Source: Escherichia coli
Lineage (GTDB): Bacteria; Pseudomonadota; Gammaproteobacteria; Enterobacterales; Enterobacteriaceae
NCBI RefSeq assembly: GCF_050920415.1
Contig: NZ_CP169309.1
DNA length: 64,000 nucleotides
Strand: one strand, 5' to 3'
The notes beneath the pieces were generated by a model, which had not been told where the DNA came from, did not search any database, and saw only the letters and a list, made by a program, of their open reading frames with translations. Of the stretch, positions 12,159 to 64,000 are shown in pieces (position 1 is the first letter of the stretch; each line of letters opens with the position of its first letter). The position numbers were made by a program, and so were the translations under genes.

Positions 12159-12159
12159 T

Positions 12160-18978: not shown

Positions 18979-19052
18979 CATTAATACCTCTATTAATCAA
19001 ATCTGGAGCAGTCTATTTCACAGCATGCTCTCTGGCTATATGGAATAAAAAA

Positions 19053-21037: not shown

Positions 21038-21094
21038 TAGTTTTTGCATCTTGTTCGTGATGGTGGAACAAGATGAATTAAAAGGAATGATGAA

Positions 21095-21970: not shown

Positions 21971-21984
21971 TATGTGGGAACTCA

Positions 21985-22398: not shown

Positions 22399-22852
22399 GC
22401 TAAGTGACGTCCAGACAACATCAATTGGTGATGGAACAACTATCTGGCAGTTTGTTGTAATACTAAAAGGTGCTGTAATTGGTAATAATTGCAACATCTG
22501 TGCAAATACCTTGATTGAAAATAACGTTGTAATTGGTAACAATGTCACAGTCAAAAGCGGTGTGTATATTTGGGATGGCGTTAAAATAGAGGATAATGTT
22601 TTTATTGGTCCTTGTGTAGCATTTACAAATGATAAGTATCCTCGCTCTAAAGTCTATCCTGATGAATTTTTGCACACAATAATACGCAAAGGAGCATCAA
22701 TAGGTGCTAATGCAACCATCCTGCCAGGAATTGAAATTGGTGAAAAAGCAATCGTTGGTGCGGGGAGTGTCGTAACCAAAAATGTACCGCCATGCGCAAT
22801 AGTAGTAGGTAATCCAGCTCGATTTATTAAATGGGTAGAGGATAATGAATAA
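22385..22852 (+). CDS. fdtC: dTDP-3-amino-3,6-dideoxyhexose N-acetyltransferase (hexapeptide-repeat, FdtC-type)
   Basis: 155-aa ORF with left-handed beta-helix repeats ([23 protein letters not shown]...); probable TTG start at 22385 overlapping the fdtA 3' end, start uncertain. Confidence 0.7.
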
Positions 22853-23951: not shown

Positions 23952-25213
23952 TGAAAAAATTTCTTCAGGTAACTATATTATCCGCTATCTATACATTCAT
24001 TAAAATGATTGCGGGTTTTATCATCGGTAAGGTAGTAGCAATTTATACAGGGCCATCAGGGGTAGCAATGCTTGGCCAAGTGCAAAGTTTAATCACAATA
24101 GTTGCAGGTACTACTTCTGCACCTGTAAGCACCGGTCTTGTTCGATATACTGCGGAAAATTGGCAAGAAGGACAGGAAGCATGCGCGCCATGGTGGCGCG
24201 CATGCTTAAGGGTTACTCTGTTTTTATTCTTGCTTATTATTCCCGTTGTTATTTTATTGTCGAAAAATATTAGCGAGTTACTTTTTAGCGATGGACAATA
24301 CACATGGTTAATCATTTTCGCATGTTGTATATTGCCATTCTCCATTTTAAATACATTGATCGCTTCAGTTTTAAATGGTCAACAATTCTATAAGCAATAT
24401 ATATTGGTTGGGATGTTTTCTGTATTCATTTCTACTATGTTTATGATTTTGTTGATTGTAGCTTATAATCTTAAAGGTGCATTGATTGCCACGGCTATAA
24501 ATAGTGCTATTGCTGGTCTTGTATTAGTTTTATTTTGTCTCAATAAATCTTGGTTTAGATTTAAATATTGGTGGGGTAAAACGGATAAAGACAAAATTAT
24601 AAAAATTATTCATTATACTCTGATGGCTTTGGTTTCTGTTATCTCCATGCCTACAGCATTGATGTGTATTAGAAAAATATTGATTGCTAAAACTGGTTGG
24701 GAGGATGCAGGGCAATGGCAGGCCGTATGGAAGATATCTGAGGTCTATCTTGGTGTTGTGACAATTGCTTTGTCAACATATTTCTTACCAAGATTGACAA
24801 TTATAAAAACAAGTTTCCTTATAAAAAAAGAGGTAAATAGTACTATATTATACATAGTATCTATTACTTCATTCATGGCGTTGAGTATCTATTTATTCCG
24901 CGATTTGGTAATAACAGTTTTATTTACTGAACAGTTTCGCTCAGCTCGTGAATTATTTTTGTTACAACTCGTAGGGGATGTAATAAAAATTGCTGGTTTT
25001 CTTTATGCATACCCTCTTCAAAGTCAGGGGCATACTAAACTATTCATCAGTTCAGAAGTGATTTTTTCTATGCTCTTTATCGTTACCACCTATATTTTTG
25101 TTGTAAATTATGGAGTACATGGTGCTAACATAAGTTATGTCATTACATATAGTTTATATTTTGTGTTTGCATTTGTGTTTACTAATTTTATTAATGTCAG
25201 AAGAATTAATTAA
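23951..25213 (+). CDS. wzx: O-antigen flippase Wzx
   Basis: 420-aa, about 12-TM, AT-rich membrane protein immediately after the sugar-nucleotide genes. Confidence 0.8.
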   Translation: MKKFLQVTILSAIYTFIKMIAGFIIGKVVAIYTGPSGVAMLGQVQSLITIVAGTTSAPVSTGLVRYTAENWQEGQEACAPWWRACLRVTLFLFLLIIPVVILLSKNISELLFSDGQYTWLIIFACCILPFSILNTLIASVLNGQQFYKQYILVGMFSVFISTMFMILLIVAYNLKGALIATAINSAIAGLVLVLFCLNKSWFRFKYWWGKTDKDKIIKIIHYTLMALVSVISMPTALMCIRKILIAKTGWEDAGQWQAVWKISEVYLGVVTIALSTYFLPRLTIIKTSFLIKKEVNSTILYIVSITSFMALSIYLFRDLVITVLFTEQFRSARELFLLQLVGDVIKIAGFLYAYPLQSQGHTKLFISSEVIFSMLFIVTTYIFVVNYGVHGANISYVITYSLYFVFAFVFTNFINVRRIN

Positions 25214-25222
25214 AAACAGAGG

Positions 25223-26278
25223 TTGAAATTGAAAATAATTATACCTGTCTTAGGATTTGGCAGGGCTGGTGGTGAAAGAGTTCTTTCTAAGCTGGCAACT
25301 GAATTGATGAATTATGGACATGATGTAAGTTTTGTTGTTCCAGATAATAGAACTAATCCATATTATGCTACCACAGCAAAAATCGTCACGAGTAAATCTA
25401 GTCAAAACCGTGTAAAAATATTGAGAATCATTAAAAATTACTATAATCTGTGGCGTAAATGCATAGAATTAAATCCTGATGCTGTAGTTGCTAGTTTTCA
25501 TTTGACTGCCTATCTTGTCGCATTATTACCAATCACCCGTCGTAAGAAATATTATTATATTCAGGCGTATGAAGTTAATTTTTTTGATAATATAATATGG
25601 AAATTAATAGCGGGTTTAACATATTATTTACCGCTTAAAAAAATACTAAATAGTCCTAATTTGCTTCCTCATAAACATGATGATTTTATAGGAGTAGTTC
25701 CTGCAGGAGTAGATTTAAACGTTTTCTATCCGAAACCATCAAATAGGTTATTAAATGGTCACACATCAATAGGGATTATTGGTAGAAAAGAGAAGCACAA
25801 AGGAACTAGCGAAATTATTTCAGTATTGTGTTCACTGGAAAATAAAGTTGGAATTATAATTAATATTGCGATCTATCTTGAAGAAGTTGATAAGGAGCGT
25901 TTAATTGCTGCCGGGTTTCAGGTTAATTTTTTTCCGATTACTTCTGATTTAGAATTGGCATCTTTTTATCGAAGCAATGACATCATGATTGCAGCTGGGT
26001 TAATTGAAGATGGCGCTTTCCATTATCCTTGTGCTGAATCAATGGCTTGTGGTTGTCTTGTTATTTCAAATTATGCGCCACTTACTGAAACTAACAGTGT
26101 ACTTAAATTAGTCAAGTTTGATGCTTGCAAACTTGGTAAAGCAATTAATCTTTGTCTCAATCTTGACCTAGAAGAAAAAAGCAAAGAAATCCAATCTAAT
26201 ATTTCTGTGTTGAATAAATATGACTGGAAAATTGTTGGTGAAACTTTCAATAGTTTATTGTTAGATGCAAATAAATAG
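25223..26278 (+). CDS. O-antigen glycosyltransferase (GT1/GT4-like)
   Basis: About 350-aa ORF with non-ATG start (TTG at 25223 or 25229; AGAGG RBS at 25217-25221 favours 25229); N-terminus KIIIPVLGFGRAGGERV... typical of GT4-like transferases. Confidence 0.7.
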   Translation: MKLKIIIPVLGFGRAGGERVLSKLATELMNYGHDVSFVVPDNRTNPYYATTAKIVTSKSSQNRVKILRIIKNYYNLWRKCIELNPDAVVASFHLTAYLVALLPITRRKKYYYIQAYEVNFFDNIIWKLIAGLTYYLPLKKILNSPNLLPHKHDDFIGVVPAGVDLNVFYPKPSNRLLNGHTSIGIIGRKEKHKGTSEIISVLCSLENKVGIIINIAIYLEEVDKERLIAAGFQVNFFPITSDLELASFYRSNDIMIAAGLIEDGAFHYPCAESMACGCLVISNYAPLTETNSVLKLVKFDACKLGKAINLCLNLDLEEKSKEIQSNISVLNKYDWKIVGETFNSLLLDANK

Positions 26279-26298
26279 TATACGTTGATGGGGAAAAT

Positions 26299-26856
26299 AT
26301 GAATATTGTTAAAACTGATATTCCAGATCTGATCGTTCTTGAACCAAAAGTGTTTAGTGATGAACGCGGCTTTTTTATGGAGAGTTATAATCAGATTGAA
26401 TTTGAGAAGACAATAGGAAGGCACGTAAATTTTGTTCAGGATAATCATTCAAAATCTAGTAAAGGCGTACTACGTGGGTTACATTATCAATTAGCACCGT
26501 ATGCACAGGCTAAATTAGTTCGATGTGTTGTAGGTCAGGTATTTGATGTTGCTGTTGATCTTAGAAAAAATTCACCAACGTTCAAAAAATGGTTTGGAAT
26601 AACCCTTTCCGCAGAAAATAAACGACAATTATGGATACCTGAAGGATTTGCTCATGGTTTCTTGGTGACCAGTGATGAAGCTGAGTTCATTTATAAAACA
26701 ACGAACTACTATGCTCCTGGTCATCAGCAAGCAATTATTTACAATGATCCTATTTTAAACATCGATTGGCCTTTCTGCAGTAGTGCTCTGTCATTATCGC
26801 AAAAAGATCAAGAAGCAAAATTATTTTCAGAATTATTGGACAGTGAACTGTTCTAA
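26299..26856 (+). CDS. rmlC: dTDP-4-dehydrorhamnose 3,5-epimerase
   Basis: 185-aa ORF MNIVKTDIPDLIVLEPKVFSDERGFFMESYN...; canonical RmlC cupin; separated from rmlBDA. Confidence 0.92.
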   Translation: MNIVKTDIPDLIVLEPKVFSDERGFFMESYNQIEFEKTIGRHVNFVQDNHSKSSKGVLRGLHYQLAPYAQAKLVRCVVGQVFDVAVDLRKNSPTFKKWFGITLSAENKRQLWIPEGFAHGFLVTSDEAEFIYKTTNYYAPGHQQAIIYNDPILNIDWPFCSSALSLSQKDQEAKLFSELLDSELF

Positions 26857-26923
26857 TAAAGTGTGCCACCTTATCCGTCTGAAGGATAGGTGGTTGCTTA
26901 TATTTTTTGAGTATGTTTGTATA

Positions 26924-27886
26924 ATGACAGAAAATAGTCCGAAATATAAACACGATAAAAGCTTAATAAGTTTTATCTACTTATTTTTTATATTTACACT
27001 TATTGTAGGCTTCATTATCGCAAATACCCAGTTTTTGGGGCGAAGTAGAGACTATGATAATTATATACAGATCTTTTCTGGTGAAGAAGGGGAGGGGGTT
27101 CTTGAATTATTTTATCGCGGATTGATGTTAATAACGACCAGCTATGAAATTATCATTTTTATAATTTTAACATGTTCTTTTTTTATAAAGGCAAGGTTTC
27201 TTGCTAACTATTCGCGTAATTTTTCAGGCTTGACCTTATTCTTTGTTTATTATGCAAGCGTTGCACTTTGGGTTTTAGATTATACTCAATTCAGAAATGG
27301 TCTATGTATTTCCATTTTAATGTTTTCCGTATACTATTTATTTATAAATAAACCGACTTATTTTTATTTCTCGCTATTATGTGCAATTGCAACTCATTGG
27401 TCTGCTTTGCCTTTTTTGCTTTTATATCCTTTTGTCTATTCAAAAAAAATAAGACACCTTGGTTATTTTTGTTTCAGTATTCTTGTTTTGATTGCGATCT
27501 CAGGAGAAGGAAAAGAGATCATTTCTTTTATAAGAAATTTTGGAGTGGGACAAAAAATAGGAAACGAAGCTGGTGTAAATTTAATAAATTCATTATCCCT
27601 TACCGCTATTTTCTGGTTTGTTATTAGTTACATATCAAGCATTGGAAATGAAAGGAGAAATTTAAGACTTTTCTTTTGTTATGGTGTCATGCAATACGTG
27701 ACTTTTAGCCTTTTCTCTCTACCTGTTATGGCTTTCCGTATTTTGGAAATGTATTTTTTCCTTATGTTAACCATTGGGGTGTTTATTAAGCAAAAAAAGA
27801 ATTATTATTTTGTTTTTTGCAAAGTGTTAATTTTATTGTATCTAACATACTATTATCATATGGTTTTTGGAGTGATTAATGTGTAA
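26924..27886 (+). CDS. wzy: O-antigen polymerase Wzy
   Basis: Listed ORF starts at 26783; ATG at 26924 (MTENSPKYKHDKSLISFIYLFF...) gives about 320 aa; very AT-rich, multi-TM, with a large predicted loop. Confidence 0.7.
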   Translation: MTENSPKYKHDKSLISFIYLFFIFTLIVGFIIANTQFLGRSRDYDNYIQIFSGEEGEGVLELFYRGLMLITTSYEIIIFIILTCSFFIKARFLANYSRNFSGLTLFFVYYASVALWVLDYTQFRNGLCISILMFSVYYLFINKPTYFYFSLLCAIATHWSALPFLLLYPFVYSKKIRHLGYFCFSILVLIAISGEGKEIISFIRNFGVGQKIGNEAGVNLINSLSLTAIFWFVISYISSIGNERRNLRLFFCYGVMQYVTFSLFSLPVMAFRILEMYFFLMLTIGVFIKQKKNYYFVFCKVLILLYLTYYYHMVFGVINV

Positions 27887-28766
27887 GGCTAAGGTGTTGG
27901 CTATAATTGTTACTTACAACCCGGAAATTATTCGTTTGACGGAATGTATTAACTCTTTAGCCCCACAAGTTGAGAGAATAATTCTTGTAGATAATGGCTC
28001 AAATAATAGTCATTTGATAAAAAATATCATTATTAATAACCTTGAAATTATTTTGCTTTCGGAAAACAAAGGCATTGCATTTGCTCAGAACCATTGTGTT
28101 AAGAAGGGTCTGGAAGCAAAAGAGTTTGACTATTTATTTTTCTCAGATCAGGATACTTGCTTTCCTAGCGATGTTATTGAAAAACTTAAGAGTACATTTA
28201 CGAAAAATAATAAAAAAGGTAAAAATGTTGCTTGTGCTTCTCCTTTTTTTAAAGACCATCGTTCAAATTATATGCATCCGTCAGTCAGCCTAAATATTTT
28301 TACGAGTACAAAAGTTATATGTAGTGAAGTAGACGATGATCTTTATCCCTCGCATGTTATTGCTTCTGGGATGTTAATGTCTCGCGAGGCATGGCGCGTC
28401 GTCGGACCATTTTGTGAAAAACTCTTTATAGACTGGGTTGATACAGAATGGTGTTGGCGTGCATTAGCTAATAGTATGATTATTGTTCAGACACCATCAG
28501 TCATCATTTCTCATGAACTTGGGTATGGGCAGAAAATTTTTGCTGGTCGATCTGTTACAATACATAATTCTTTCAGAAATTTTTATAAAATACGTAATGC
28601 AATATACTTAATGCTGCATTCAAATTATAGCTTCAAGTATCGTTATCATGCTTTTTTTCATGCGACAAAGAATATTGTATTTGAAATTTTATATTCGAAA
28701 GAAAAATTAAATTCACTGAAGGTTTGTTTTAAAGCTGTACGTGATGGTATGTTCAATAATTTTTAA
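27879..28766 (+). CDS. O-antigen glycosyltransferase, GT2 family (probable rhamnosyltransferase)
   Basis: 295-aa ORF; N-terminus LAIIVTYNPE...VDNGSNNS and a DxD-like region (FFSDQDT) typical of GT2. Confidence 0.72.
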   Translation: MCKAKVLAIIVTYNPEIIRLTECINSLAPQVERIILVDNGSNNSHLIKNIIINNLEIILLSENKGIAFAQNHCVKKGLEAKEFDYLFFSDQDTCFPSDVIEKLKSTFTKNNKKGKNVACASPFFKDHRSNYMHPSVSLNIFTSTKVICSEVDDDLYPSHVIASGMLMSREAWRVVGPFCEKLFIDWVDTEWCWRALANSMIIVQTPSVIISHELGYGQKIFAGRSVTIHNSFRNFYKIRNAIYLMLHSNYSFKYRYHAFFHATKNIVFEILYSKEKLNSLKVCFKAVRDGMFNNF

Positions 28767-28796
28767 TACAAAAATAGTTAGGCTCAAGGTGTTTAA

Positions 28797-29873
28797 ATGG
28801 AAGAAAATAATATGAAGACGGTCGCTGTAGTTGGCACAGTGGGTGTTCCTGCTTGTTATGGTGGGTTTGAATCACTTGTTCAGAATCTAATTGATTATCA
28901 ATCTGATGGTATACAATATCAGATATTTTGCTCTTCAAAAAAATATAATAAAAAATTAAAAAATTATAAAAATGCAGAATTAATCTATTTGCCGATAAAT
29001 GCCAATGGCGTCTCTAGCATAATTTATGACATTATGTGTTTAATTATTTGTTTATTCAAAAGGCCAGATGTTGTTTTAATATTGGGGGTATCTGGTTGTT
29101 TATTTCTACCAATTTATAAACTATTTTCAAAATCAAAGATCATTGTCAACATCGATGGGCTTGAATGGCGTAGAAATAAATGGGGAACGTTTGCTAAGAA
29201 ATTTCTCAAAATATCTGAGGCGATATCTATTAGAATAGCTGATATTATCATTTCAGATAATCAAGCAATAGCTGATTATGTGGAAAATAAGTACAATAAA
29301 AAAAGCGTAGTTATAGCTTATGGGGGAGATCATGCTACTAATCTTAGTACACCGATAGACGATGATCAAAAAAAAGATGGTTATTATTTGGGGCTTTGTA
29401 GGATAGAGCCTGAGAATAATATAGAAATGATTTTGAATGCCTTCATTAATACAGATAAAAAAATTAAATTTATGGGTAATTGGGATAATAGCGAGTATGG
29501 GCGCCAGCTAAAAAAATATTATTCAAACTATCCAAATATCACACTACTAGAACCTAACTATAATATCGAAGAACTTTATAAACTAAGAAAAAATTGCCTT
29601 GCATACATTCATGGACACTCGGCTGGTGGAACAAACCCTTCTTTAGTTGAAGCGATGCATTTTAATATTCCTATTTTTGCTTTCGATTGTGACTTTAATC
29701 GTTACACAACTAATAATTTAGCTCATTACTTTAATGATTCTGAACAACTGACCTCATTAGCAGACAGTTTGTCTTTTGGAAATCTTAAATGTCAAGTATT
29801 AGATTTAAAAAAATATGCTGAAGATATGTATAACTGGAGGCATATAGCTGCTATGTATGAATCTATTTATTAA
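28797..29873 (+). CDS. O-antigen glycosyltransferase (GT1-like)
   Basis: 358-aa ORF (alternative start MKTVAVVG at 28812); GT1-like C-terminal motifs; last gene of the O-unit block. Confidence 0.68.
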   Translation: MEENNMKTVAVVGTVGVPACYGGFESLVQNLIDYQSDGIQYQIFCSSKKYNKKLKNYKNAELIYLPINANGVSSIIYDIMCLIICLFKRPDVVLILGVSGCLFLPIYKLFSKSKIIVNIDGLEWRRNKWGTFAKKFLKISEAISIRIADIIISDNQAIADYVENKYNKKSVVIAYGGDHATNLSTPIDDDQKKDGYYLGLCRIEPENNIEMILNAFINTDKKIKFMGNWDNSEYGRQLKKYYSNYPNITLLEPNYNIEELYKLRKNCLAYIHGHSAGGTNPSLVEAMHFNIPIFAFDCDFNRYTTNNLAHYFNDSEQLTSLADSLSFGNLKCQVLDLKKYAEDMYNWRHIAAMYESIY

Positions 29874-30039
29874 ACGCATTAACAATAATATAATTGACCT
29901 TATATAGCTATCAGAGTAAAAATGTAACGCTGATTTTTTTGTTAAATGATGCGCATTATATATTTAATGATTAAAATACTCTTGATCAAATAAAACTATT
30001 TAATTAATAATGTAAAATTTCATTATGCTATTTAAGATG

Positions 30040-30108
30040 TGAAAAATAACTTAAATAAATGATGGGATATATTTATATTATCCCGGTTATAGACAAGCCC
30101 AGGGAAAG
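30040..30108 (+). repeat. Degenerate duplicate of the 5' end of the H-repeat (ISAs1) transposase gene
   Basis: 30057-30108 (aaatgatgggatatatttatattatcccggttatagacaagcccagggaaag) is about 85% identical to 30257-30308 inside the transposase ORF; the ATG equivalent is mutated. Confidence 0.6.
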
Positions 30109-30244
30109 ATCATCAGAAGTACACTTTTTGTACTAAATAATTCGCATTTTATGTTTAAAAATATGAGATATTCCTCATTACCTGAAGCTGTTTTTTATTG
30201 CTTATACATGATCAAATACTCCTTACATAATTAAGGAGAACAAA

Positions 30245-31381
30245 ATGGAACTTAAAAAATTGATGGAACATATTTCTATTATCCCCGATTACAGACAAGC
30301 CTGGAAAGTGGAACATAAATTATCGGATATTCTACTGTTGACTATTTGTGCCGTCATTTCTGGTGCAGAAGGCTGGGAAGATATAGAGGATTTTGGAGAA
30401 ACACATCTCGATTTTTTGAAGCAATATGGTGATTTTGAAAATGGTATTCCTGTTCACGATACCATTGCCAGAGTTGTATCCTGTATCAGTCCTGCAAAAT
30501 TTCACGAGTGCTTTATTAACTGGATGCGAGATTGCCATACTTCAGATGATAAAGACGTCATCGCAATTGATGGAAAAACACTCCGGCATTCTTATGACAA
30601 GAGTCGCCGTAAGGGAGCGATTCATGTCATTAGTGCGTTCTCAACAATGCACAGTCTGGTCATCGGACAGATCAAGACGGATGAGAAATCCAATGAGATT
30701 ACAGCCATCCCTGAACTTCTTAACATGTTGGATATTAAAGGGAAAATTATCACAACTGATGCGATGGGTTGCCAGAAAGATATTGCAGAGAAGATACAAA
30801 AACAGGGAGGTGATTATTTATTCGCTGTAAAAGGAAATCAGCGTCGGCTTAATAAAGCCTTTGAAGAAAAATTCCCACTGAAAGAATTAAATAATCCAGA
30901 GCATGACAGTTATGCAATTAGTGAAAAGAGTCACGGCAGAGAAGATATCCGTCTTCATATTGTTTGCGATGACCCTGATGAACTTATTGATTTCACGTTT
31001 GAATGGAAAGGACTGAAAAAATTATGCGTGGCAGTCTCCTTTCGCTCAATAATAGCAGAGCAAAAGAAAGAGCCCGAAATGATGGTCAGATATTATATCA
31101 GTTCTGCTGATTTAACCGCTGAGAAGTTTGCGACAGCGATTTGAAATCACTGGCACGTGGAGAATAAGCTGCACTGGCGTCTGGACGTGGTAATGAATGA
31201 AGACGATTGTAAAATAAGAAGAGGAAATGCAGCAGAATTATTTTCTGGGATACGGCACATTGCTATTAATATTTTGACGAATGATAAGGTATTCAAGACA
31301 GGATTAAGACGTAAGATGCGAAAAGCAGCCATGGACAGAAACTATCTCGCGTCAGTCCTTGCGGGGAGCGGGCTTTACTAG
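30245..31381 (+). mobile_element. ISAs1-family (H-repeat-associated) transposase gene interrupted by a single in-frame TGA (pseudogene)
   Basis: 299-aa ORF (30245-31144) and 74-aa ORF (31157-31381) are in the same frame, separated only by TGA at 31142-31144; the combined about 378-aa product has the ISAs1 motif ...[21 protein letters not shown]... with the stop at a conserved Arg position. Confidence 0.8.
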
Positions 31382-31453
31382 TCCTTCCTCGCTCAGTGAC
31401 AGAATATTGAATGAATAGCATTAAAATTATTAAATAATATGGTTTAATTCGAC

Positions 31454-33081
31454 ATGAACTTTAAGAATATAATTAGAATAATACTACCTTTTTTTATTTT
31501 CTTGAGTATTTTACTTTACTCAGGAAGGGCGGATAGTGTTTTGTTATTTACTATCGAATACACACTTGCAAGTATGGCAATCTTTCTGATAAAAAGAAAG
31601 TTTATAAGCAATATCTTGTGGGGGATTTATCTCTCAATTTTAGGTGTACAGGCAGCATCGCTATTTAGTTCAGGACAATATTTGATGCCTCTTGCCTTGT
31701 CGAATGCTGCAGAAGTTGAATCGCTAGGCATTGGCGAGGTAATCAAGGTTTTTTCTATTTTTATTTTATTTGTTATAGTTTCATTCGTTACGATGCCTTC
31801 TGGTGCTCTAGTCGGCCGTATTAAATATTATAAATTTAATTTTTTCTGTATAGTATTATTGCTTGTGTGTTCTTTCATAAGCACGGGACCGGTATATGCT
31901 TTTTATGAAACAGCAAAATTGTACTATTTACAGCAAACCTTTAAGCCTAGTGAGAAGATCGGTGATGCCGGGAAATCTTTTTTAAAAACAAGTGTTTTTA
32001 TTAACCCTCTACAGAATAACAACAACTTCAAAGGGCGTAATGTTATTGTAATCTTTGCTGAGGGATTTTCATCGGAGATTATTGGTAATTCAAAAATGGC
32101 GCATTTTCCAATTACGCCTAATTTAGATAAGTTATCTACTGAAGCACTAAGTTTTAAAAATTATTATAACCATACAGCAGTAACCTTTCGAGGTTTAAGA
32201 GGCCAGTTAACTTCTGGCTATCAATTTCGTGATGGGTTAACTGATGCTGGTACTGGTATTGCACAATTATCTAACGTAGAAATTAATAATATTTATCTTC
32301 ATCGTCAAACATCTTTGCCGAATATATTGAAAGAGTATGGCTATAAAAGTTATTTTATAGCGTCTACAGAAAAAATAGCCCACTCAACACTATGTTGAAA
32401 ACGCTTAATTTTGATAAAGTTCTTGGTATGGGAGATTTTATTGGTTATCAACGCGACAGAATGACTGATAAGCAAACATTTAATGCACTGCAATATTTTT
32501 TACGTTCTCAAGAAAATAAAAACGAACGCTTTTTTATTGGTGTGTACCCATCTGGTACTCATCATGGTCAAGATAGTCCAAATGAAAAATATTTTGATGG
32601 TAGCAATCCTCTCTACAATAAATTCTATAACTATGATTTTCAGTTGGGGAAGTTTGTTGATTTTTTTCGGCGCAGTTCATTTTATGGCAATACGTTGTTG
32701 ATAATTACATCGGATCATTCTACATTTCCTTCGACAGAATATAAGAAATCATTTAACAGCGATTCTCGTTATTTTGTGGACAAAATACCATTTCTGATCA
32801 TTGGGAAAAATATTACGCCTGAAGTTTTAGATGCAGGAGGTGAAAATTCTTTAAGTTTCGCGCCAACAATATTGCACATGTTAGGGATTCAGTATTCAAT
32901 GAATTATTTTTTGGGGTGTTCTCTTTTTGATAAGACGTGCACATCACCATTCTCACATCTTTCTGCTATTGGTAGTGATTATTTCAATACAGGCAAAGAA
33001 AATCATGTTGAACTAATTCAAAATAATAGTGGTAATGAATTAATAAAATTAGCCGAACGTTTTTATAACATTAGTGGCTAA
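31454..33081 (+). pseudogene. Sulfatase/alkaline-phosphatase-superfamily membrane enzyme (LtaS/phosphoglycerol- or phosphoethanolamine-transferase-like), frameshifted
   Basis: 314-aa ORF (31454-32398) has N-terminal TM helices then a sulfatase-like domain (NVIVIFAEGFSSE...); the domain continues in another frame as a 229-aa ORF (32392-33081; ...LLIITSDHSTFPS...); frame change lies near an A6 run at 32370-32375. Confidence 0.6.
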
Positions 33082-33215
33082 ATATAAAAATGTACAAGTT
33101 ACAAGCAATTTCCTAATTAGGAAATATATGACTGTAAAAGAAGATATAAATTAAGCTATTCTTTATCTTCAATAAGCCGCAACCCCGCGGTGATCACCCC
33201 TGACAGGAGTAAACA

Positions 33216-44424: not shown

Positions 44425-44461
44425 ATAAAAAAGCCCCCGGAAGGTGATCTTCCGGGGGCTT
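44425..44461 (-). terminator. his operon attenuator (leader terminator hairpin)
   Basis: On the minus strand agcccccggaagatcaccttccgggggct followed by a U-run, between hisL and hisG. Confidence 0.85.
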
Positions 44462-44523
44462 TCTCATACGTTCATGCACCACTGGAAGATCTGAATGTCT
44501 TCCAGCACACATCGCCTGAAAGA

Positions 44524-44574
44524 CTAGTCAGGATGATGGTGATGATGGTGGTGTTTAAATTGAACGCGTGTCAT
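44524..44574 (-). CDS. hisL: his operon leader peptide (7 consecutive His codons)
   Basis: Reverse complement reads ATG ACA CGC GTT CAA TTT AAA CAC CAC CAT CAT CAC CAT CAT CCT GAC TAG = MTRVQFKHHHHHHHPD*. Confidence 0.92.
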   Translation of the reverse strand: MTRVQFKHHHHHHHPD

Positions 44575-46800: not shown

Positions 46801-47066
46801 AGAAAAATTATTATGACAAGCCTCTCATTCTCTTGTCATTTCCCCCCCATTTAGGCACAATGCGCCGCTGTCAAAAAATGACTAAAAACCGACGTTTAAT
46901 TAGCGTCGGTTATTTTTTGCTTCAAACCAATCATTCATACCAAGAGGCCGGGCTTCGTACCGGATAGATATTTACTAAAAATCGACAGTTGTTGTCGCTG
47001 AGGAATCCAAAAAAATGGGGCAATTTTTTGCTTACGCGACGGTTATTACCGTAAAGGAGAATGACC

Positions 47067-53651: not shown

Positions 53652-53751
53652 TTCCTGTTTTATTCAATGAGGGTTGCCCGGTAACCCTCATTGCTCATTG
53701 TTTCTTTTCTGTGTATCACCGTCATCATTCCCATCTGATAACCTATTGAAA

Positions 53752-54048
53752 TTAGCGATAGCCTTCTTCTGTATGCAGCAAGGCAAAAAGTTCTGCAACT
53801 CCATTGTTATTAACCGCACTGGTTACTAACACATTGTGCGCTCCAGCTTCCCGTAACCAACTTTTCACCAAAGATATTTGTTCCATACTGGCTAAATCTG
53901 CTTTGGTGACTACTCCAATGACCGGGCGATTCATTGACGAGGTAAAGCCTGGCGAAAAAGGTGACCACGGTGCGTCCGCATTAAGTACCAGCGCGATAAT
54001 GTCTGCTTCGCAGGCACTGACTAACAGAGCACTGTAGAGGCTGCGGTT
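53752..54048 (-). pseudogene. yoeF: EutP/PduV-family GTPase remnant lacking the N-terminal P-loop (yoeF-like)
   Basis: Stop-to-stop frame on the minus strand: ...[84 protein letters not shown]; has C-terminal EutP/PduV character but no GxxxxGKT/S. Confidence 0.6.
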
Positions 54049-54519
54049 TTATCGGTGAGGACTGGCAGCAAGATTTCCAGCCTTTTGACGGTGGGCCTGT
54101 GCAATCGTTATCAGATTCGTATAGCGATTATTCAGTGCTGCTATTGATAGCAGCTGAAAGCGAGATATCCGTACCAGAATAGCTCCCTCATTCTGAGGGA
54201 ACGACGGTAATTTTGATTGCAGAACACAATGCCCGTTTGCTGAATGGTCCGGCTGGTGGGGCTGTAGCATTAATCCATTATTTGAATGAAATCAGTCATG
54301 CCAGAGAAACCGCTGTCAATGACGCATTTTGTCGGACGTTAACACGAGGAAGTCTGGCTATTCCGCAATGCCATCTTCTTTCGTAATGGATTGAGAATGC
54401 TGGATTTTTAATTATATTACGCGCAGTATTAATCGCGTAAATGTTTTGCGGTCAGCAACAGTGGGGGAACCATTGTTCTGTTCAATGAATACCATCATAC
54501 AATTGAATCAGGAGTCGGT

Positions 54520-57640: not shown

Positions 57641-57694
57641 TGAACCGCCCCGGAAATCCTGGAGACTAAACTTCCTGAGAAAGAGGTAAACAGG

Positions 57695-58021
57695 ATGACT
57701 AAAAATACTCGTTTTTCCCCCGAAGTCCGTCAACGCGCAGTTCGTATGGTTCTGGAAAGTCAGGGCGAATATGACTCACAATGGGCGGCAATTTGTTCCA
57801 TTGCTCCAAAGATTGGCTGTACGCCAGAGACTCTGCGTGTCTGGGTTCGCCAGCATGAGAGGGATACCGGGAGCGGTGATGGTGGGCTCACCACCGCTGA
57901 ACGTCAGCGTCTGAAAGAGCTGGAACGTGAAAATCGTGAACTGCGCCGCAGTAACGATATCCTTCGCCAGGCTTCCGCTTATTTTGCGAAGGCGGAGTTC
58001 GACCGCCTCTGGAAAAAATAA
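57695..58021 (+). CDS. IS3-family transposase OrfA (HTH DNA-binding)
   Basis: 108-aa [45 protein letters not shown]...; ends in the A-rich run ctggaaaaaataa at the orfA/orfB overlap. Confidence 0.9.
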
Positions 58022-58908
58022 TGCCACTGCTGGATAAGCTGCGTGAGCAGTACGGGGTCGGACCGGTATGCAGTGAACTGCATATTGCCCCGTCAACGTA
58101 TTACCATTGTCAGCAGCAGCGGCATCATCCTGATAAACGCAGTGCCCGTGCGCAGCGCGATGACTGGCTGAAGAGAGAGATACAGCGCGTATACGATGAA
58201 AATCATCAGGTGTACGGTGTGCGTAAAGTCTGGCGTCAGTTGTTACGGGAAGGAATCAGGGTGGCCAGATGTACAGTGGCGCGCCTCATGGCGGTTATGG
58301 GACTTGCCGGTGTTCTCCGGGGTAAAAAGGTCCGCACTACCGTCAGCCGGAAAACCGTTGCCACAGGTGACCGCGTAAACCGTCAGTTCGTGGCAGAACG
58401 TCCTGACCAGCTGTGGGTGGCTGATTTTACTTACGTCAGCACATGGCAGGGCTTCGTCTATGTGGCGTTCATCATTGATGTGTTTGCCGGATACATCGTG
58501 GGGTGGCGGGTCTCATCGTCTATGGAAACGACATTCGTGCTGGATGCGCTGGAGCAGGCGTTGTGGGCCCGTCGTCCGTCTGGCACCATCCATCACAGCG
58601 ATAAAGGCTCTCAGTATGTGTCACTGGCCTATACGGAGCGACTAAAAGAAGCAAAACTGCTGGCATCAACAGGGAGTACAGGCGACTCGTATGACAACGC
58701 GATGGCTGAGAGCATCAATGGTCTTTACAAAGCGGAGGTAATACACCGTAAGAGCTGGAAAAACCGTGCAGAAGTGGAACTGGCCACACTCACGTGGGTG
58801 GACTGGTATAACAATCGACGATTGCTGGGAAGGCTGGGCCATACTCCTCCGGCAGAAGCAGAAAAAGCTTATTATGCTTCCATCGGAAACAATGATCTGG
58901 CAGCCTGA
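58021..58908 (+). CDS. IS3-family transposase OrfB (DDE integrase domain), probably expressed as an OrfAB -1 frameshift fusion
   Basis: 295-aa ORF in the -1 frame relative to orfA; DDE/integrase-core motifs (...HHSDKGSQYVS...DNAMAESINGLYKAE...). Confidence 0.9.
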   Translation: MPLLDKLREQYGVGPVCSELHIAPSTYYHCQQQRHHPDKRSARAQRDDWLKREIQRVYDENHQVYGVRKVWRQLLREGIRVARCTVARLMAVMGLAGVLRGKKVRTTVSRKTVATGDRVNRQFVAERPDQLWVADFTYVSTWQGFVYVAFIIDVFAGYIVGWRVSSSMETTFVLDALEQALWARRPSGTIHHSDKGSQYVSLAYTERLKEAKLLASTGSTGDSYDNAMAESINGLYKAEVIHRKSWKNRAEVELATLTWVDWYNNRRLLGRLGHTPPAEAEKAYYASIGNNDLAA

Positions 58909-58950
58909 GTTCACAGATAAAACACTCTCCAGGAAACCCGGGGCGGTTCA

Positions 58951-59208
58951 ACTCGTGTACAAATTATTGATCAGCCAGTGAAATACACAACGGAACCGGA
59001 TGGATCAAAGTGGCTGGAAGTTCATGAGCCACTGTCGCGCAACCGTGCGGAATATGAGTCAGACCGAAAAGTGCCTTTGCCAGTAACGCCATCTTTGCGG
59101 ACGTTCATTAACGGGCAAGAAGTTGATGTGAATCGCGCAAATGCTGCATTGCAGCGCCGATCAGGAATGCCTGTGCAAATTAGTTCTGGTTCAAGACAGA
59201 TGTTTTAA
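58951..59208 (+). pseudogene. ldtA: L,D-transpeptidase LdtA (ErfK), 3' portion downstream of the IS insertion
   Basis: Continues the ldtA frame after the IS: (T)RVQIIDQPVKYTTEPDGSKWLEVHEPLSRNRAEYESDRKVPLPVTPSLRTFINGQEVDVNRANAALQRRSGMPVQISSGSRQMF*. Confidence 0.85.
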
Positions 59209-59221
59209 GAGCGTTGTTAAT

Positions 59222-59258
59222 TAGAAAGCAAAAAGCCTGCTCGAAAGCAGGCTTTTTT
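59222..59258. terminator. Rho-independent terminator (bidirectional) between ldtA and asnV
   Basis: aaaaagcctgctcgaaagcaggcttttttg hairpin with flanking A/T runs. Confidence 0.75.
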
Positions 59259-59263
59259 GAATT

Positions 59264-59339
59264 TGGCTCCTCTGACTGGACTCGAACCAGTGACATACGG
59301 ATTAACAGTCCGCCGTTCTACCGACTGAACTACAGAGGA
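59264..59339 (-). tRNA. asnV: tRNA-Asn (anticodon GUU)
   Basis: Reverse complement is TCCTCTGTAGTTCAGTCGGTAGAACGGCGGACTGTTAATCCGTATGTCACTGGTTCGAGTCCAGTCAGAGGAGCCA; cloverleaf with GTT anticodon and encoded CCA. Confidence 0.95.
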
Positions 59340-59592
59340 ATCGTGTGAACGGGGCGCATATTAATGGCAGTGCATGGTGATGTCAAAGGGTGAAATGCAT
59401 TTTTTTGTTTGTTTGCTGCCAATTTCGACAAAATGGTGAGCTTTCAATCTTTTTGGTAATGAACCATCGTGGTGCATACCTTTCTGTCTTGGGGCAGAGA
59501 ACGCGAGTTCTAATAAAAAGATCGAGTGACAAAACTATCATAATCTCTTATTTGACCGTTGGTTAGCTTGCATATCAACACAAAATTAAAAC

Positions 59593-59608
59593 TGGCAAGT
59601 ATCTTGCA
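59593..59608 (+). promoter_or_regulatory. Sigma-54 (-24/-12) promoter of nac
   Basis: TGGCAAGTATCTTGCA matches TGGCAC-N5-TTGCA spacing, about 55 bp upstream of the nac ATG; nac is known to be sigma54/NtrC-dependent. Confidence 0.8.
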
Positions 59609-59663
59609 ATCTGGTTGTAAGTAATGGCGGCACTTGGGCCGATTCTTATAAACCGGAGGCAAC

Positions 59664-60581
59664 ATGAACTTCAGACGCCTGAAATACTTCGTAAAAATTG
59701 TAGATATTGGTAGCCTGACCCAGGCTGCTGAAGTGTTGCATATCGCGCAACCCGCGCTCAGCCAGCAGGTTGCCACGCTGGAAGGTGAGTTGAATCAACA
59801 ACTTTTGATTCGCACAAAACGGGGCGTTACGCCAACAGACGCCGGAAAAATTCTCTATACCCATGCGCGGGCCATTTTACGTCAGTGTGAGCAGGCCCAA
59901 CTGGCGGTGCATAACGTTGGTCAGGCATTATCGGGGCAAGTCTCGATTGGCTTTGCACCAGGAACAGCGGCCTCATCTATCACCATGCCTTTATTGCAGG
60001 CGGTTCGCGCTGAATTCCCGGAAATTGTTATTTATCTCCATGAAAATAGCGGTGCTGTGCTCAACGAAAAACTGATAAGCCACCAACTCGATATGGCAGT
60101 AATTTATGAGCATTCTCCTGTGGCTGGTGTTTCCAGTCAGGCTTTGCTGAAAGAAGATCTTTTCCTGGTAGGAACGCAAGATTGCCCGGGGCAAAGCGTT
60201 GATGTTAATGCTATTGCGCAAATGAACCTCTTTCTCCCCAGCGATTACAGTGCCGTTAGACTTCGTGTTGATGAGGCTTTTTCCCTACGGCGACTCACGG
60301 CAAAAGTCATTGGTGAAATTGAGTCTATTGCCACGCTTACCGCAGCAATTGCCAGCGGCATGGGCGTTGCAGTATTACCCGAATCGGCCGCGCGTTCGTT
60401 ATGTGGCGCAGTAAACGGATGGATGTCACGCATTACCACACCTTCAATGAGTCTCTCTTTGTCATTAAATTTACCCGCCAGAGCGAACTTATCACCACAG
60501 GCGCAAGCAGTGAAAGAGTTGTTAATGTCAGTGATGAGTTCTCCAGTGATGGAAAAAAGGCAGTGGCAATTGGTGAGCTAA
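59664..60581 (+). CDS. nac: Nitrogen assimilation control protein Nac (LysR family)
   Basis: 305-aa ORF MNFRRLKYFVKIVDIGSLTQAAEVLHIAQPALSQQVATLE... Confidence 0.93.
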   Translation: MNFRRLKYFVKIVDIGSLTQAAEVLHIAQPALSQQVATLEGELNQQLLIRTKRGVTPTDAGKILYTHARAILRQCEQAQLAVHNVGQALSGQVSIGFAPGTAASSITMPLLQAVRAEFPEIVIYLHENSGAVLNEKLISHQLDMAVIYEHSPVAGVSSQALLKEDLFLVGTQDCPGQSVDVNAIAQMNLFLPSDYSAVRLRVDEAFSLRRLTAKVIGEIESIATLTAAIASGMGVAVLPESAARSLCGAVNGWMSRITTPSMSLSLSLNLPARANLSPQAQAVKELLMSVMSSPVMEKRQWQLVS

Positions 60582-60682
60582 GCGTTATATCGGGATGGAA
60601 TAAGATGCGGGTTTTTATTATTTGTTATGCCGGGCATTAAACTTTAACAATAACGTGATATCTGAACTGCCCGGAGTTTACC

Positions 60683-61633
60683 GTGAATTTCCAACAACTA
60701 AAGATAATCCGCGAGGCTGCACGTCAGGATTACAACCTGACAGAGGTTGCGAATATGCTTTTTACCTCACAGTCAGGCGTCAGCCGTCACATTCGGGAAC
60801 TGGAGGATGAACTTGGCATCGAAATATTTGTTCGACGAGGTAAGCGACTGCTGGGCATGACTGAACCGGGCAAAGCATTACTGGTCATTGCAGAACGTAT
60901 TCTGAATGAAGCCAGTAATGTTCGTCGGCTTGCAGACCTGTTTACCAACGATACGTCTGGCGTTCTCACTATTGCAACGACGCATACTCAGGCACGTTAT
61001 AGCTTGCCTGAGGTCATTAAAGCTTTTCGCGAACTTTTCCCGGAGGTTCGGCTGGAGCTAATCCAGGGTACACCACAGGAAATTGCGACGTTGTTGCAAA
61101 ATGGCGAAGCTGATATTGGTATCGCCAGCGAGCGTTTAAGTAATGACCCGCAGCTCGTCGCCTTCCCGTGGTTTCGTTGGCACCATAGTTTGCTTGTTCC
61201 ACTCGATCATCCCTTGACGCAAATTATACCGTTGACGCTGGAATCAATAGCGAAGTGGCCGTTAATCACTTACCGACAGGGGATTACGGGGCGCTCACGT
61301 ATTGATGACGCATTTGTCCGCAAAGGTTTGCTGGCAGATATTGTATTAAGTGCGCAGGATTCTGATGTCATTAAAACCTATGTTGCACTCGGGCTGGGGA
61401 TTGGATTAGTTGCCGAACAATCCAGCGGTGAACAAGAGGAAAAGAATTTAATCCGTCTGGATACGCGGCATCTTTTCGATGCTAATACTGTCTGGTTGGG
61501 ACTCAAGCGAGGACAACTTCAGCGTAACTATGTCTGGCGCTTTCTGGAACTTTGTAATGCAGGACTGTCAGTTGAGGATATCAAGCGCCAGGTGATGGAG
61601 AACAGTGAAGAGGAAATTGATTATCAGATATAG
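60683..61633 (+). CDS. cbl: Cys-regulon accessory regulator Cbl (LysR family)
   Basis: 316-aa ORF MNFQQLKIIREAARQDYNLTEVANMLFTSQSGVSRHIRELE... Confidence 0.93.
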   Translation: MNFQQLKIIREAARQDYNLTEVANMLFTSQSGVSRHIRELEDELGIEIFVRRGKRLLGMTEPGKALLVIAERILNEASNVRRLADLFTNDTSGVLTIATTHTQARYSLPEVIKAFRELFPEVRLELIQGTPQEIATLLQNGEADIGIASERLSNDPQLVAFPWFRWHHSLLVPLDHPLTQIIPLTLESIAKWPLITYRQGITGRSRIDDAFVRKGLLADIVLSAQDSDVIKTYVALGLGIGLVAEQSSGEQEEKNLIRLDTRHLFDANTVWLGLKRGQLQRNYVWRFLELCNAGLSVEDIKRQVMENSEEEIDYQI

Positions 61634-61635
61634 CA

Positions 61636-61660
61636 AAAAGCCCGCTATAAAAGCGGGCTT
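61636..61660. terminator. Rho-independent terminator between cbl and asnU
   Basis: aaaaagcccgctataaaagcgggctttt hairpin. Confidence 0.7.
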
Positions 61661-61670
61661 TTCAGAAATT

Positions 61671-61746
61671 TGGCTCCTCTGACTGGACTCGAACCAGTGA
61701 CATACGGATTAACAGTCCGCCGTTCTACCGACTGAACTACAGAGGA
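61671..61746 (-). tRNA. asnU: tRNA-Asn (anticodon GUU)
   Basis: 76-nt sequence identical to the asnV copy, on the minus strand. Confidence 0.95.
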
Positions 61747-61906
61747 ATCGCTGTTGAGGCACATCTTAACGGCGAAAAATCTTTTGTCAAACCCGATTTT
61801 TAAATTTCCCAACTGTTTGCCGTTTCTATCAACAGTTTGTTGCATTTGCAGACAATTTGTTGGCGAAAATCTTTGCAGCTTTGCTGATTCTCCCTCATCA
61901 TTTGAA

Positions 61907-63394
61907 ATGTGGTTTCACTTTTTGCAATTAAGGTCGGCTTTGAATATCTCCTCTGCTTTACGCCAGGTTGTTCACGGCACTCGCTGGCACGCCAAACGCA
62001 AGAGCTACAAGGTGTTGTTCTGGCGCGAGATAACCCCGCTTGCTGTTCCTATCTTCATGGAGAATGCCTGTGTCCTGTTGATGGGTGTTTTGAGTACTTT
62101 TCTGGTCAGCTGGCTGGGAAAAGATGCGATGGCCGGCGTGGGATTGGCGGACAGCTTCAATATGGTCATTATGGCTTTTTTTGCAGCTATCGATCTTGGT
62201 ACTACTGTCGTTGTGGCATTTAGTCTCGGTAAGCGGGATCGACGACGAGCGAGGGTGGCGACGCGGCAGTCATTGGTGATCATGACGTTGTTTGCCGTAC
62301 TGTTGGCAACGCTTATTCATCATTTTGGCGAACAAATTATTGATTTCGTCGCAGGTGATGCCACGACAGAAGTTAAAGCACTGGCGTTGACTTATCTGGA
62401 GCTGACGGTACTCAGTTATCCAGCAGCTGCCATCACTTTGATTGGTAGCGGGGCACTTCGTGGTGCAGGGAATACGAAAATACCGCTACTGATTAACGGT
62501 AGCCTGAATATTCTTAATATTATTATTAGCGGCATATTGATTTACGGCCTTTTCTCCTGGCCGGGACTGGGATTTATCGGGGCTGGGTTGGGGTTAACCA
62601 TTTCTCGTTATATTGGCGCAGTGGCAATTTTGTGGGTGCTGGCGATTGGTTTTAATCCTGCGCTAAGGATTTCGTTAAAGAGCTATTTTAAACCGCTGAA
62701 TTTTAGCATTATCTGGGAAGTCATGGGGATTGGCATTCCTGCGAGTGTCGAATCAGTATTATTTACCAGTGGTCGGTTATTAACCCAAATGTTCGTTGCC
62801 GGGATGGGGACCAGTGTTATTGCCGGGAATTTTATCGCGTTTTCAATTGCGGCTCTTATCAACTTACCCGGAAGTGCGCTCGGCTCTGCTTCTACAATCA
62901 TTACAGGCCGAAGGTTGGGGGTAGGGCAGATAGCGCAAGCAGAGATTCAGTTGCGGCATGTGTTCTGGCTGTCCACTCTTGGATTAACGGCCATCGCCTG
63001 GCTAACGGCTCCCTTTGCTGGGGTTATGGCATCGTTTTACACCCAGGATCCACAGGTTAAACATGTCGTTGTGATTCTGATTTGGCTAAATGCTTTATTT
63101 ATGCCTATTTGGTCTGCCTCATGGGTGCTACCCGCTGGATTTAAGGGGGCTCGCGATGCCCGTTACGCCATGTGGGTTTCTATGTTGAGCATGTGGGGTT
63201 GCCGGGTTGTAGTCGGTTATGTGCTGGGAATCATGCTTGGCTGGGGTGTGGTTGGTGTCTGGATGGGAATGTTTGCCGACTGGGCTGTGCGGGCCGTGCT
63301 GTTTTACTGGCGCATGGTTACTGGACGTTGGCTGTGGAAATACCCTAGACCTGAGCCGCAAAAGTGTGAAAAAAAGCCAGTTGTGTCGGAATAA
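61907..63394 (+). CDS. yeeO: MATE-family efflux transporter YeeO (flavin/dipeptide exporter)
   Basis: Listed ORF starts at 61754; ATG at 61907 (MWFHFLQLRSALNISSALRQ...) gives 495 aa; 12-TM MATE topology. Confidence 0.85.
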   Translation: MWFHFLQLRSALNISSALRQVVHGTRWHAKRKSYKVLFWREITPLAVPIFMENACVLLMGVLSTFLVSWLGKDAMAGVGLADSFNMVIMAFFAAIDLGTTVVVAFSLGKRDRRRARVATRQSLVIMTLFAVLLATLIHHFGEQIIDFVAGDATTEVKALALTYLELTVLSYPAAAITLIGSGALRGAGNTKIPLLINGSLNILNIIISGILIYGLFSWPGLGFIGAGLGLTISRYIGAVAILWVLAIGFNPALRISLKSYFKPLNFSIIWEVMGIGIPASVESVLFTSGRLLTQMFVAGMGTSVIAGNFIAFSIAALINLPGSALGSASTIITGRRLGVGQIAQAEIQLRHVFWLSTLGLTAIAWLTAPFAGVMASFYTQDPQVKHVVVILIWLNALFMPIWSASWVLPAGFKGARDARYAMWVSMLSMWGCRVVVGYVLGIMLGWGVVGVWMGMFADWAVRAVLFYWRMVTGRWLWKYPRPEPQKCEKKPVVSE

Positions 63395-63494
63395 ACGACA
63401 AAGTGCAGATTATTTCAGCAAACGATTTCAAATTTAAAAAACAGGCTTTGACATTAAGGATGGGCATCGCTAATATTCGCCTCGTTCTCACGAT

Positions 63495-63570
63495 TCCTCT
63501 GTAGTTCAGTCGGTAGAACGGCGGACTGTTAATCCGTATGTCACTGGTTCGAGTCCAGTCAGAGGAGCCA
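63495..63570 (+). tRNA. asnW: tRNA-Asn (anticodon GUU)
   Basis: Plus-strand copy of the same 76-nt tRNA-Asn sequence, with CCA end. Confidence 0.95.
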
Positions 63571-63635
63571 AATTTTAGTTTTGAGACATCTCTATAAGTC
63601 TCAAAACAGTTAAAAAATAAAAATTATTTTTACCC

Positions 63636-63668
63636 GGTTACTTTGTAAAAAAGTGACCGGGTTTTTTG
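63636..63668 (+). terminator. Rho-independent terminator downstream of asnW
   Basis: aaaaaagtgaccgggttttttg hairpin; a second hairpin (gagacatctctataagtctc) lies at 63586-63606. Confidence 0.6.
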
Positions 63669-64000
63669 ATTTCTGTGTTTCGTGCGCTTAATCGAGTCTC
63701 ACGCTTCAGTGAGCAAATTGCCCCTCCCCAACAGACATCACGATTCGCAAGGTCAAAAACTCTGTTCCATGAAGTACCGTACAAAGATAAAGAGAAAAAT
63801 GCCTTATGCGGGATGTCGCTATCGCGTCTTTATCGGGAAACTATGCGTAATTGCCACTTTGCCTTCTGTAATCAGAAAAAGAAGAACTGGAATTTTAATA
63901 AATATTATTTCTCTGGGACCGGTATTTTTATAATCAATATGACGAGTTGAATATTATGTTTATTATAAGATTTATATGAAATTAAAGAAATCTGCCATAA

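Follow-up and report, generated by a model that had tools for sequence, protein, structure and literature searches.

Background

The asparagine tRNA genes of Escherichia coli are 100% identical, and the pks island enters the chromosome at asnW, asnU or asnV (PMC8209727, PMC8461471). Islands of the pks (colibactin) and HPI kinds found at asn tRNAs come with a P4-type integrase and with 16-17-bp direct repeats that copy the 3' end of the tRNA. In pks-positive B2 strains a region of 4309 bp is inverted (PMC8209727, PMC8461471), and inversion between asnW and asnV has been detected within cultures of UTI89 (PMC6458436). Both the whole-cluster inversion and the insertion of islands into asn tRNAs are already published.

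We analysed a 64-kb stretch of E. coli DNA, referred to below as the window, near one end of which lie three tRNA-Asn genes. In K-12 this locus reads asnV-nac-cbl-asnU-yeeO-asnW-yeeN (b1983-b1989). The same genes and tRNAs were found in the window, in the same order and relative orientations, and the differences from K-12 are allelic only (about 4%). The target sites of pks and HPI are present as well: at their 3' ends the tRNA-Asn genes have the same sequence as the sites used in Nissle 1917 and elsewhere (PMC8209727). Unlike the island-bearing loci, however, none of the three tRNAs in the window has an integrase, a direct repeat or island cargo beside it. The inversion of the asnW-asnU-asnV region published for pks-positive B2 strains and UTI89 uses these repeats and affects the segment that spans 59264-63570 (4307 bp) in the window, but here that segment is oriented as in K-12 and is not inverted. 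We are almost certain that the window carries the canonical E. coli asnV-nac-cbl-asnU-yeeO-asnW segment, with the K-12 gene order on the opposite strand, each tRNA gene predicted to form its own unit, a normal spacer after asnW, no islands and no rearrangement. As an arrangement, it is ordinary.

Gene organisation of the asnV-asnW segment

Exactly three tRNA genes were detected in the window by ARAGORN, all of them tRNA-Asn with the anticodon GTT, and each obtained 72.6 bits with the Rfam tRNA model against a cut-off of 29 (Table 1). Direct string comparison showed asnV, asnU and asnW to be mutually identical (76/76 nt). Of the four identical tRNA-Asn(GUU) genes on the chromosome, only asnT lies outside the window, and the four together are the source of the sole Asn isoacceptor. 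Positions 58960-64000 aligned with K-12 in a single collinear alignment with 96.2% identity and shared gene order, and the alignments spanning asnU and asnW were 100% identical to the K-12 loci over 85 nt. An earlier reading of the window, made from the sequence only, had described three identical tRNA-Asn genes interleaved with nac-cbl and yeeO. The tRNA predictions and the string comparison bear this out, and its gene names and order agree with the annotation of both K-12 and NZ_CP169399.1, a public genome 99.98% identical to the window over all 64 kb. Two starts are annotated for yeeO: PGAP gives a protein of 495 aa, and the longest ORF, which begins at 61754 and encodes 546 aa, agrees with the K-12 annotation. 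Upstream of the tRNA cluster, ldtA is split in the window by an IS3-family element.

Table 1. Features of the tRNA-Asn cluster in the 64-kb window
Feature	Position	Strand	Basis
asnV, terminator-like hairpin (intrinsic type) with T-run, 12-pair stem, 5 G-C pairs	59230..59257	-	terminator scan
asnV, tRNA-Asn(GUU), 76 nt	59264..59339	-	ARAGORN, Rfam; K-12 position between ldtA and nac
asnV, sigma-70-type promoter-like site, TTGACA-17-TAATAT	59358..59386	-	consensus scan, 10/12 matches
nac, LysR-type nitrogen assimilation regulator, 305 aa	59664..60581	+	ORF; annotation in NZ_CP169399.1 and K-12
cbl, LysR-type regulator, 316 aa	60683..61633	+	ORF; annotation in NZ_CP169399.1 and K-12
asnU, tRNA-Asn(GUU), 76 nt	61671..61746	-	ARAGORN, Rfam, identity; K-12 position
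asnU, sigma-70-type promoter-like site, TTGACA-16-TAAGAT	61763..61790	-	consensus scan, 10/12 matches
yeeO, MATE-family FMN/FAD exporter	61907..63394	+	ORF list; annotation in NZ_CP169399.1 and K-12
asnW, sigma-70-type promoter-like site, TTGACA-17-TAATAT	63448..63476	+	consensus scan, 10/12 matches
asnW, tRNA-Asn(GUU), 76 nt	63495..63570	+	ARAGORN, Rfam, identity
asnW-yeeN intergenic spacer, first 430 nt of about 453 nt	63571..64000		alignment to K-12 and NZ_CP169399.1
asnW, predicted 3' trailer, two hairpins	63578..63667	+	RNA fold, terminator scan

Promoter-like hexamers are kept across the upstream flanks of all three tRNA genes when these are aligned. On the other side, predicted terminators lie directly 3' of asnV and asnU, whereas asnW is followed instead by a structured trailer of about 100 nt, in which a 10-bp hairpin (63578-63607) precedes a strong predicted intrinsic terminator (63632-63662) with a 13-pair stem and a T-run. 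The predicted RNA fold of the trailer has an energy of -36.6 kcal/mol (z = -7.4 compared with shuffled sequences). From these motifs we infer promoter and terminator function for the flanking sites; each tRNA gene would then be a monocistronic unit of its own, with a near-consensus sigma-70 promoter upstream and an intrinsic terminator downstream.

The DNA downstream of asnW

The GC content of the 430 bp that follow asnW is 34.2%, against 47.4% for the whole window and 38-41% for the neighbouring intergenic regions, and no gene is annotated there. The earlier remark that AT-rich DNA begins after asnW was thus accurate. About 10% of all 430-bp segments of the 64 kb have an equal or lower GC content, and all of these lie in the O-antigen cluster. 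The 430 bp align position by position with the asnW-yeeN spacer of K-12, from which they differ at about a dozen sites, and 4788 of the 5426 complete E. coli genomes (88%) carry yeeO, asnW and the spacer as one contiguous stretch. Since the window ends 24 nt short of yeeN, the continuation was taken from the near-identical NZ_CP169399.1, where the yeeN stop codon is found about 24 nt past the window end and the genes annotated after asnW are yeeN, amn and shiA. In the annotations of NZ_CP169399.1 and K-12, yeeN lies 453-454 nt past asnW, and the spacer of about 452 nt is shared with K-12. The AT-rich 430 bp are the normal spacer between the convergent asnW and yeeN, carrying what is predicted to be the asnW trailer hairpin and terminator.

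The sequence-only reading had raised the possibility that this DNA is the start of an island, that is, the left edge of a pks-, HPI- or ICE-like element integrated into the asnW 3' end. The fall to 34% GC directly after asnW would fit such an element, and asn tRNAs are proven island sites, as that reading rightly stated, with integrases beside the tRNA in other strains (PMC8209727, PMC8461471). Islands with integrases adjoin asnW in Nissle 1917, KL53 and 2016C-3878, and at occupied sites in other strains the integrase gene begins about 160-180 nt past the tRNA. In the window, by contrast, nothing integrase-like is found at that distance and the first 430 nt after asnW contain no integrase ORF; in NZ_CP169399.1 yeeN follows 454 nt past asnW, and the annotation shows no integrase over the 12.4 kb downstream of this tRNA gene. 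For a second copy of the tRNA 3' end (16-17 nt), such as marks the far boundary of an island, the window was searched by sequence and the DNA beyond it was covered by the annotation of NZ_CP169399.1. With up to 3 mismatches allowed, copies of the 3'-terminal 16-mer CCAGTCAGAGGAGCCA in the window are limited to the three tRNA genes themselves. The same 430 bp follow asnW in K-12. The spacer is conserved, yeeN comes next and the 3'-end repeat is missing, which is the outcome that the earlier reading had itself named as refuting its suggestion. No island starts at asnW and this lead can be set aside; an island edge here has almost no probability left. The asnW 3' end is an unoccupied attachment site, of the kind into which pks-type islands have inserted in other strains, and all three tRNA-Asn 3' ends in the window are free of islands, which leaves the three asn attachment sites of this strain empty.

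The spacer could also be something other than the ordinary intergenic DNA for which we take it. It might be what is left, in degraded form, of an ancient mobile element, or it might encode a small RNA, a small protein or a 3' external transcribed spacer that annotation has missed; in either case it would have become fixed in the core genome of E. coli and would do more than terminate asnW and yeeN. The two-hairpin trailer, which asnV and asnU do not have, and the slightly higher AT content compared with the neighbouring regions point in this direction, as does a 94-codon ORF with a TTG start at 63666-63950 (+), which is open in K-12 over most of its length in a fixed-offset frame comparison (upstream indels shift the offset in L004 and L009). 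However, neither this ORF nor the one at 63638-63784 (-) had a Pfam match above threshold, and the former is unannotated in every genome inspected, K-12 and the PGAP-annotated genomes included; a hidden gene was consequently dropped. In an Rfam scan of positions 58500-64000 (E <= 1), the only matches beyond the tRNAs were far below threshold and lay on terminator hairpins (manA-II, STnc370, rnk leader and Trp leader). No family reached its gathering score, and manA-II, the sole match overlapping the spacer, obtained 35 bits where 100 are required. We took these subthreshold matches as chance, and a structured RNA was dropped as well. Moreover, convergent intergenic regions with two terminators are typically AT-rich. 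A further role of the spacer is accordingly very improbable, though somewhat less so than an island edge. About 280 bp of the spacer have no assigned function.

Rearrangements between tRNA copies in other genomes

Identical 76-nt tRNA copies could serve as substrates for homologous recombination. Recombination between asnU and asnW would invert yeeO, between asnV and asnW would invert the whole cluster, and between asnV and asnU would delete nac-cbl; a RecA-type mechanism is inferred for these events. The sequence-only reading had proposed the yeeO inversion and the nac-cbl deletion; it had overlooked asnV/asnW as a further inverted pair. We searched the corresponding junctions among 5426 complete E. 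coli genomes, the window itself being in the unrearranged state.

Both proposed events have occurred. The junction of the yeeO-only inversion is found in 32 of the 5426 genomes (about 0.6%) and the inversion is clean in LD27-1, while clean deletions of nac-cbl are seen in at least 2 genomes, AH20K059 and MEI3O-23. The commonest rearrangement is the asnV/asnW inversion of the whole cluster, whose junction is present in 265 genomes (about 4.9%), pks-positive Nissle 1917 among them. In LD27-1, Nissle 1917, AH20K059 and MEI3O-23 the breakpoints lie inside the tRNA copies. Neither the yeeO-only inversion nor the clean nac-cbl deletion is mentioned in PMC8209727, PMC8461471 or PMC6458436.

The 4.3-kb segment might on this basis be regarded as a small cassette shuffled by recombination, in which yeeO-only inversions and rare clean nac-cbl deletions add to the published inversion, with possible effects on fitness or expression; separately, the asnW trailer, structured and unusually long, or the spacer might encode an RNA function so far unrecognised. 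We consider this reading unlikely. If the cassette were real, its possible effects would include a change in the orientation of yeeO relative to replication and the loss of Nac/Cbl regulation. Independently of it, the rough frequencies from the survey may help in typing pks/HPI configurations or in interpreting structural variants at the asn locus.

The junction joining ldtA through a tRNA to the 5' side of yeeO, as expected of a deletion, was detected in 35 genomes. These could not all be accepted as simple deletions, most of the genomes keeping four tRNA-Asn copies. In 2016C-3878, nac-cbl is found about 16 kb away, behind integrase-bearing island DNA, and SL112 shows a partial nac-cbl deletion whose ends lie outside the tRNAs. 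AH20K059 and MEI3O-23 are the two in which a clean deletion was verified. Finally, the reciprocal junction of the whole-cluster inversion, from ldtA through a tRNA to the 3' side of yeeO, was recovered in one genome only, SE15. In Nissle 1917 the pks island lies on this side of the inversion, which probably accounts for the lack of the junction in the other pks-positive strains.

Identity of the region and its tRNA genes

The window aligned over its full length with the chromosome of strain MFDS1022581 (NZ_CP169399.1) at 99.98% identity, and its final 5 kb formed a single collinear block with K-12 MG1655 at 96.2% identity. The window is thus E. coli DNA, and it runs in the reverse direction relative to K-12 numbering. 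The annotations of both genomes share the gene order ldtA, asnV, nac, cbl, asnU, yeeO, asnW, yeeN, amn, shiA, so that the names assigned to asnV, nac, cbl, asnU, yeeO and asnW by the sequence-only reading were right. The locus is well known from E. coli, and the copy found here is ordinary: it is not rearranged, and none of its tRNA sites is occupied.

The only tRNA genes that ARAGORN detected in the 64 kb are three tRNA-Asn genes with anticodon GTT, and direct string comparison showed asnV, asnU and asnW to be identical over all 76 nt. When the three upstream flanks were aligned, the promoter-like hexamers were kept and the remaining sequence was divergent. A GC-rich hairpin with a T-run directly follows asnV and asnU; asnW has a longer trailer than either of them, with more secondary structure (-36.6 kcal/mol, z = -7.4). 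Because each gene has a promoter-like site upstream and a hairpin or terminator downstream, each appears to be a separate monocistronic unit, with the roles of promoter and terminator predicted from these motifs. The start of yeeO differs by annotation: the K-12 protein of 547 aa begins 4 nt from asnU and corresponds to a TTG ORF at 61754, and the PGAP protein of 495 aa starts at 61907. The longer ORF would cross the asnU promoter-like site.

Coordinates of the features discussed in the text
Feature	Position	Strand	Description
JUMPstart element	18940-18978		
algC RNA motif	9285-9334		upstream of cpsG; Rfam above gathering score
O-antigen cluster	~19050-33100		low GC; annotated as O2/O50 family (wzx, wzy)
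His operon leader	44425-44548		Rfam above gathering score
sRNA STnc240	46846-46920		near yoeI/plaP; Rfam above gathering score
pdu/cbi fragments	~53750-54390		tmaR to cobU
IS3-family insertion	~57643-58953		interrupts ldtA
ALIL frameshift pseudoknot	57976-58092		in the IS3-family insertion
asnV	59264-59339	-	ARAGORN; Rfam tRNA, 72.6 bits
asnV sigma-70 promoter-like site	just upstream		TTGACA-17-TAATAT, near-consensus
asnU	61671-61746	-	ARAGORN; Rfam tRNA, 72.6 bits
Disputed yeeO stretch	61754-61906		
asnU sigma-70 promoter-like site	61763-61790 (just upstream)		TTGACA-16-TAAGAT, near-consensus
asnW	63495-63570	+	ARAGORN; Rfam tRNA, 72.6 bits
asnW sigma-70 promoter-like site	just upstream		TTGACA-17-TAATAT, near-consensus
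asnW trailer hairpin	63578-63607		10-bp
asnW terminator	63632-63662		strong; T-run; 3' of trailer hairpin

The AT-rich DNA following asnW

The sequence-only reading had correctly described three identical tRNA-Asn genes with AT-rich DNA after the last: the 430 nt past asnW have a GC content of 34.2%, against 47.4% for the window. It had also raised the possibility that a genomic island starts there, which proved wrong. Nearby intergenic stretches have a GC content of 38-41%, only slightly above that of the spacer. Position by position, it matches the asnW-yeeN spacer of K-12, apart from about a dozen differences, mostly around one small indel. Of 5426 complete E. coli genomes, 4788 contained a contiguous match, defined as coverage of at least 80% at a single place, to a 701-nt query comprising the 3' end of yeeO, asnW and these 430 nt. 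The query was 100% identical in NZ_CP169399.1, where the end of the yeeN coding region lies 454 nt past asnW, about 24 nt outside the window, and where amn, shiA, a glycosyltransferase gene and a yeeJ-like adhesin gene follow with no integrase annotated among them. Searching the window for the tRNA 3'-end 16-mer with up to 3 mismatches recovered the three tRNA genes and no other copy, and Rfam and Pfam scans of the spacer and trailer gave no family above threshold. Taken together, the spacer match, its contiguity, yeeN without an integrase and the lack of a 3'-end repeat rule out an island beginning after asnW; the sequence-only reading had named just this outcome as refuting one. The other two genes are likewise unoccupied, the ldtA C-terminal fragment ending 55 nt from asnV and cbl ending 37 nt from asnU.

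Every 430-bp segment of the window matching the spacer in AT-richness came from the O-antigen cluster, near the end of which lies an ISAs1-family transposase pseudogene.

Rearrangements between the tRNA copies

The junctions expected from each rearrangement were constructed and searched in the 5426 complete genomes. Inversion of yeeO between asnU and asnW, anticipated by the sequence-only reading, was borne out by the junction cbl-tRNA-inverted yeeO 3' end in 32 genomes. By annotation, LD27-1 has yeeO flipped between two tRNAs with all else in place, and its alignment breakpoints (61666-61750 and 63491-63575) fall within the tRNA copies.

Inversion of the whole cluster by exchange between asnV and asnW was the most frequent: the junction inverted nac upstream-tRNA-spacer was found in 265 genomes, including Nissle 1917, UM146 and NU14. 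Its reciprocal, ldtA-tRNA-yeeO 3' end, was found only in SE15, probably because pks occupies that side, as in Nissle 1917, where the inversion spans the entire cluster and the tRNA bearing the yeeO-side flank adjoins the pks integrase and clbS. KL53 and SE15 are compound rearrangements; SE15 (11660-12757 of the retrieved stretch L010) combines inversion of the whole cluster with a partial duplicate of yeeO (MATE pseudogene) ahead of the yeeN-side tRNA, which indicates a compound event.

The asnV x asnU junction, ldtA-tRNA-yeeO 5' region, occurred in 35 genomes, 34 of them matching the query at the same 96.3% identity, a uniformity that points to few lineages. They are not all simple deletions: most retain four tRNA-Asn copies, and in 2016C-3878 nac-cbl is displaced by about 16 kb, past island DNA with two integrase genes. 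The predicted deletion of nac-cbl does occur: AH20K059 (human blood) and MEI3O-23 (soil) show its clean product, ldtA-tRNA-yeeO-tRNA-yeeN, and have three copies of tRNA-Asn. The deletion in SL112 is of another kind and removes nac-cbl only in part. Loss of the pair is rare, since 5409 of the 5426 genomes have it intact.

In the stretches retrieved from 2016C-3878 (L003 14090-15589, L006 4012-7810), the ~16 kb of island DNA separates nac-cbl from yeeO; the integrase genes lie at its edges in opposite orientations, each adjoining a tRNA-Asn. The annotation shows no tRNA beyond cbl; a T6SS cluster comes next.

The tRNA identity, island targeting and main inversion are already known, since published accounts cover them. 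The general remark that asn tRNAs are island targets thus holds, as the pks integrase of Nissle 1917 also illustrates. Wami et al. 2021 described the inversion as yeeO-tRNA(Asn)-cbl-gltC (PMC8461471); it is the same whole-cluster inversion as that of Auvray et al. The published accounts compared here mention neither the inversion of yeeO alone nor the clean loss of nac-cbl; both are to be expected from these repeats, and their interest is minor.

Other features in and near the window

The IS3-family insertion has two overlapping ORFs and is shared with NZ_CP169399.1. Homology to K-12 ldtA ends at 57642 and restarts at 58954 with a 4-bp overlap, suggesting a target-site duplication. Between tmaR and cobU only an EutP/PduV pseudogene and a cobalamin-biosynthesis pseudogene are found; in 2016C-3878 the pdu genes at this position are intact and are accompanied by pocR with a cobalamin riboswitch.

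A fourth copy, asnT, lies in NZ_CP169399.1 about 22 kb past the window end. Next to it come two integrase gene fragments (2007064-2007603; 10065-10604 of the retrieved stretch L013) and then ~8 kb of genes missing from the K-12 asnT-yeeJ interval (LysR regulator, cysteine hydrolase, hypE/hypF-like, HAD hydrolase, MFS transporter), and this region looks like a small decayed island.
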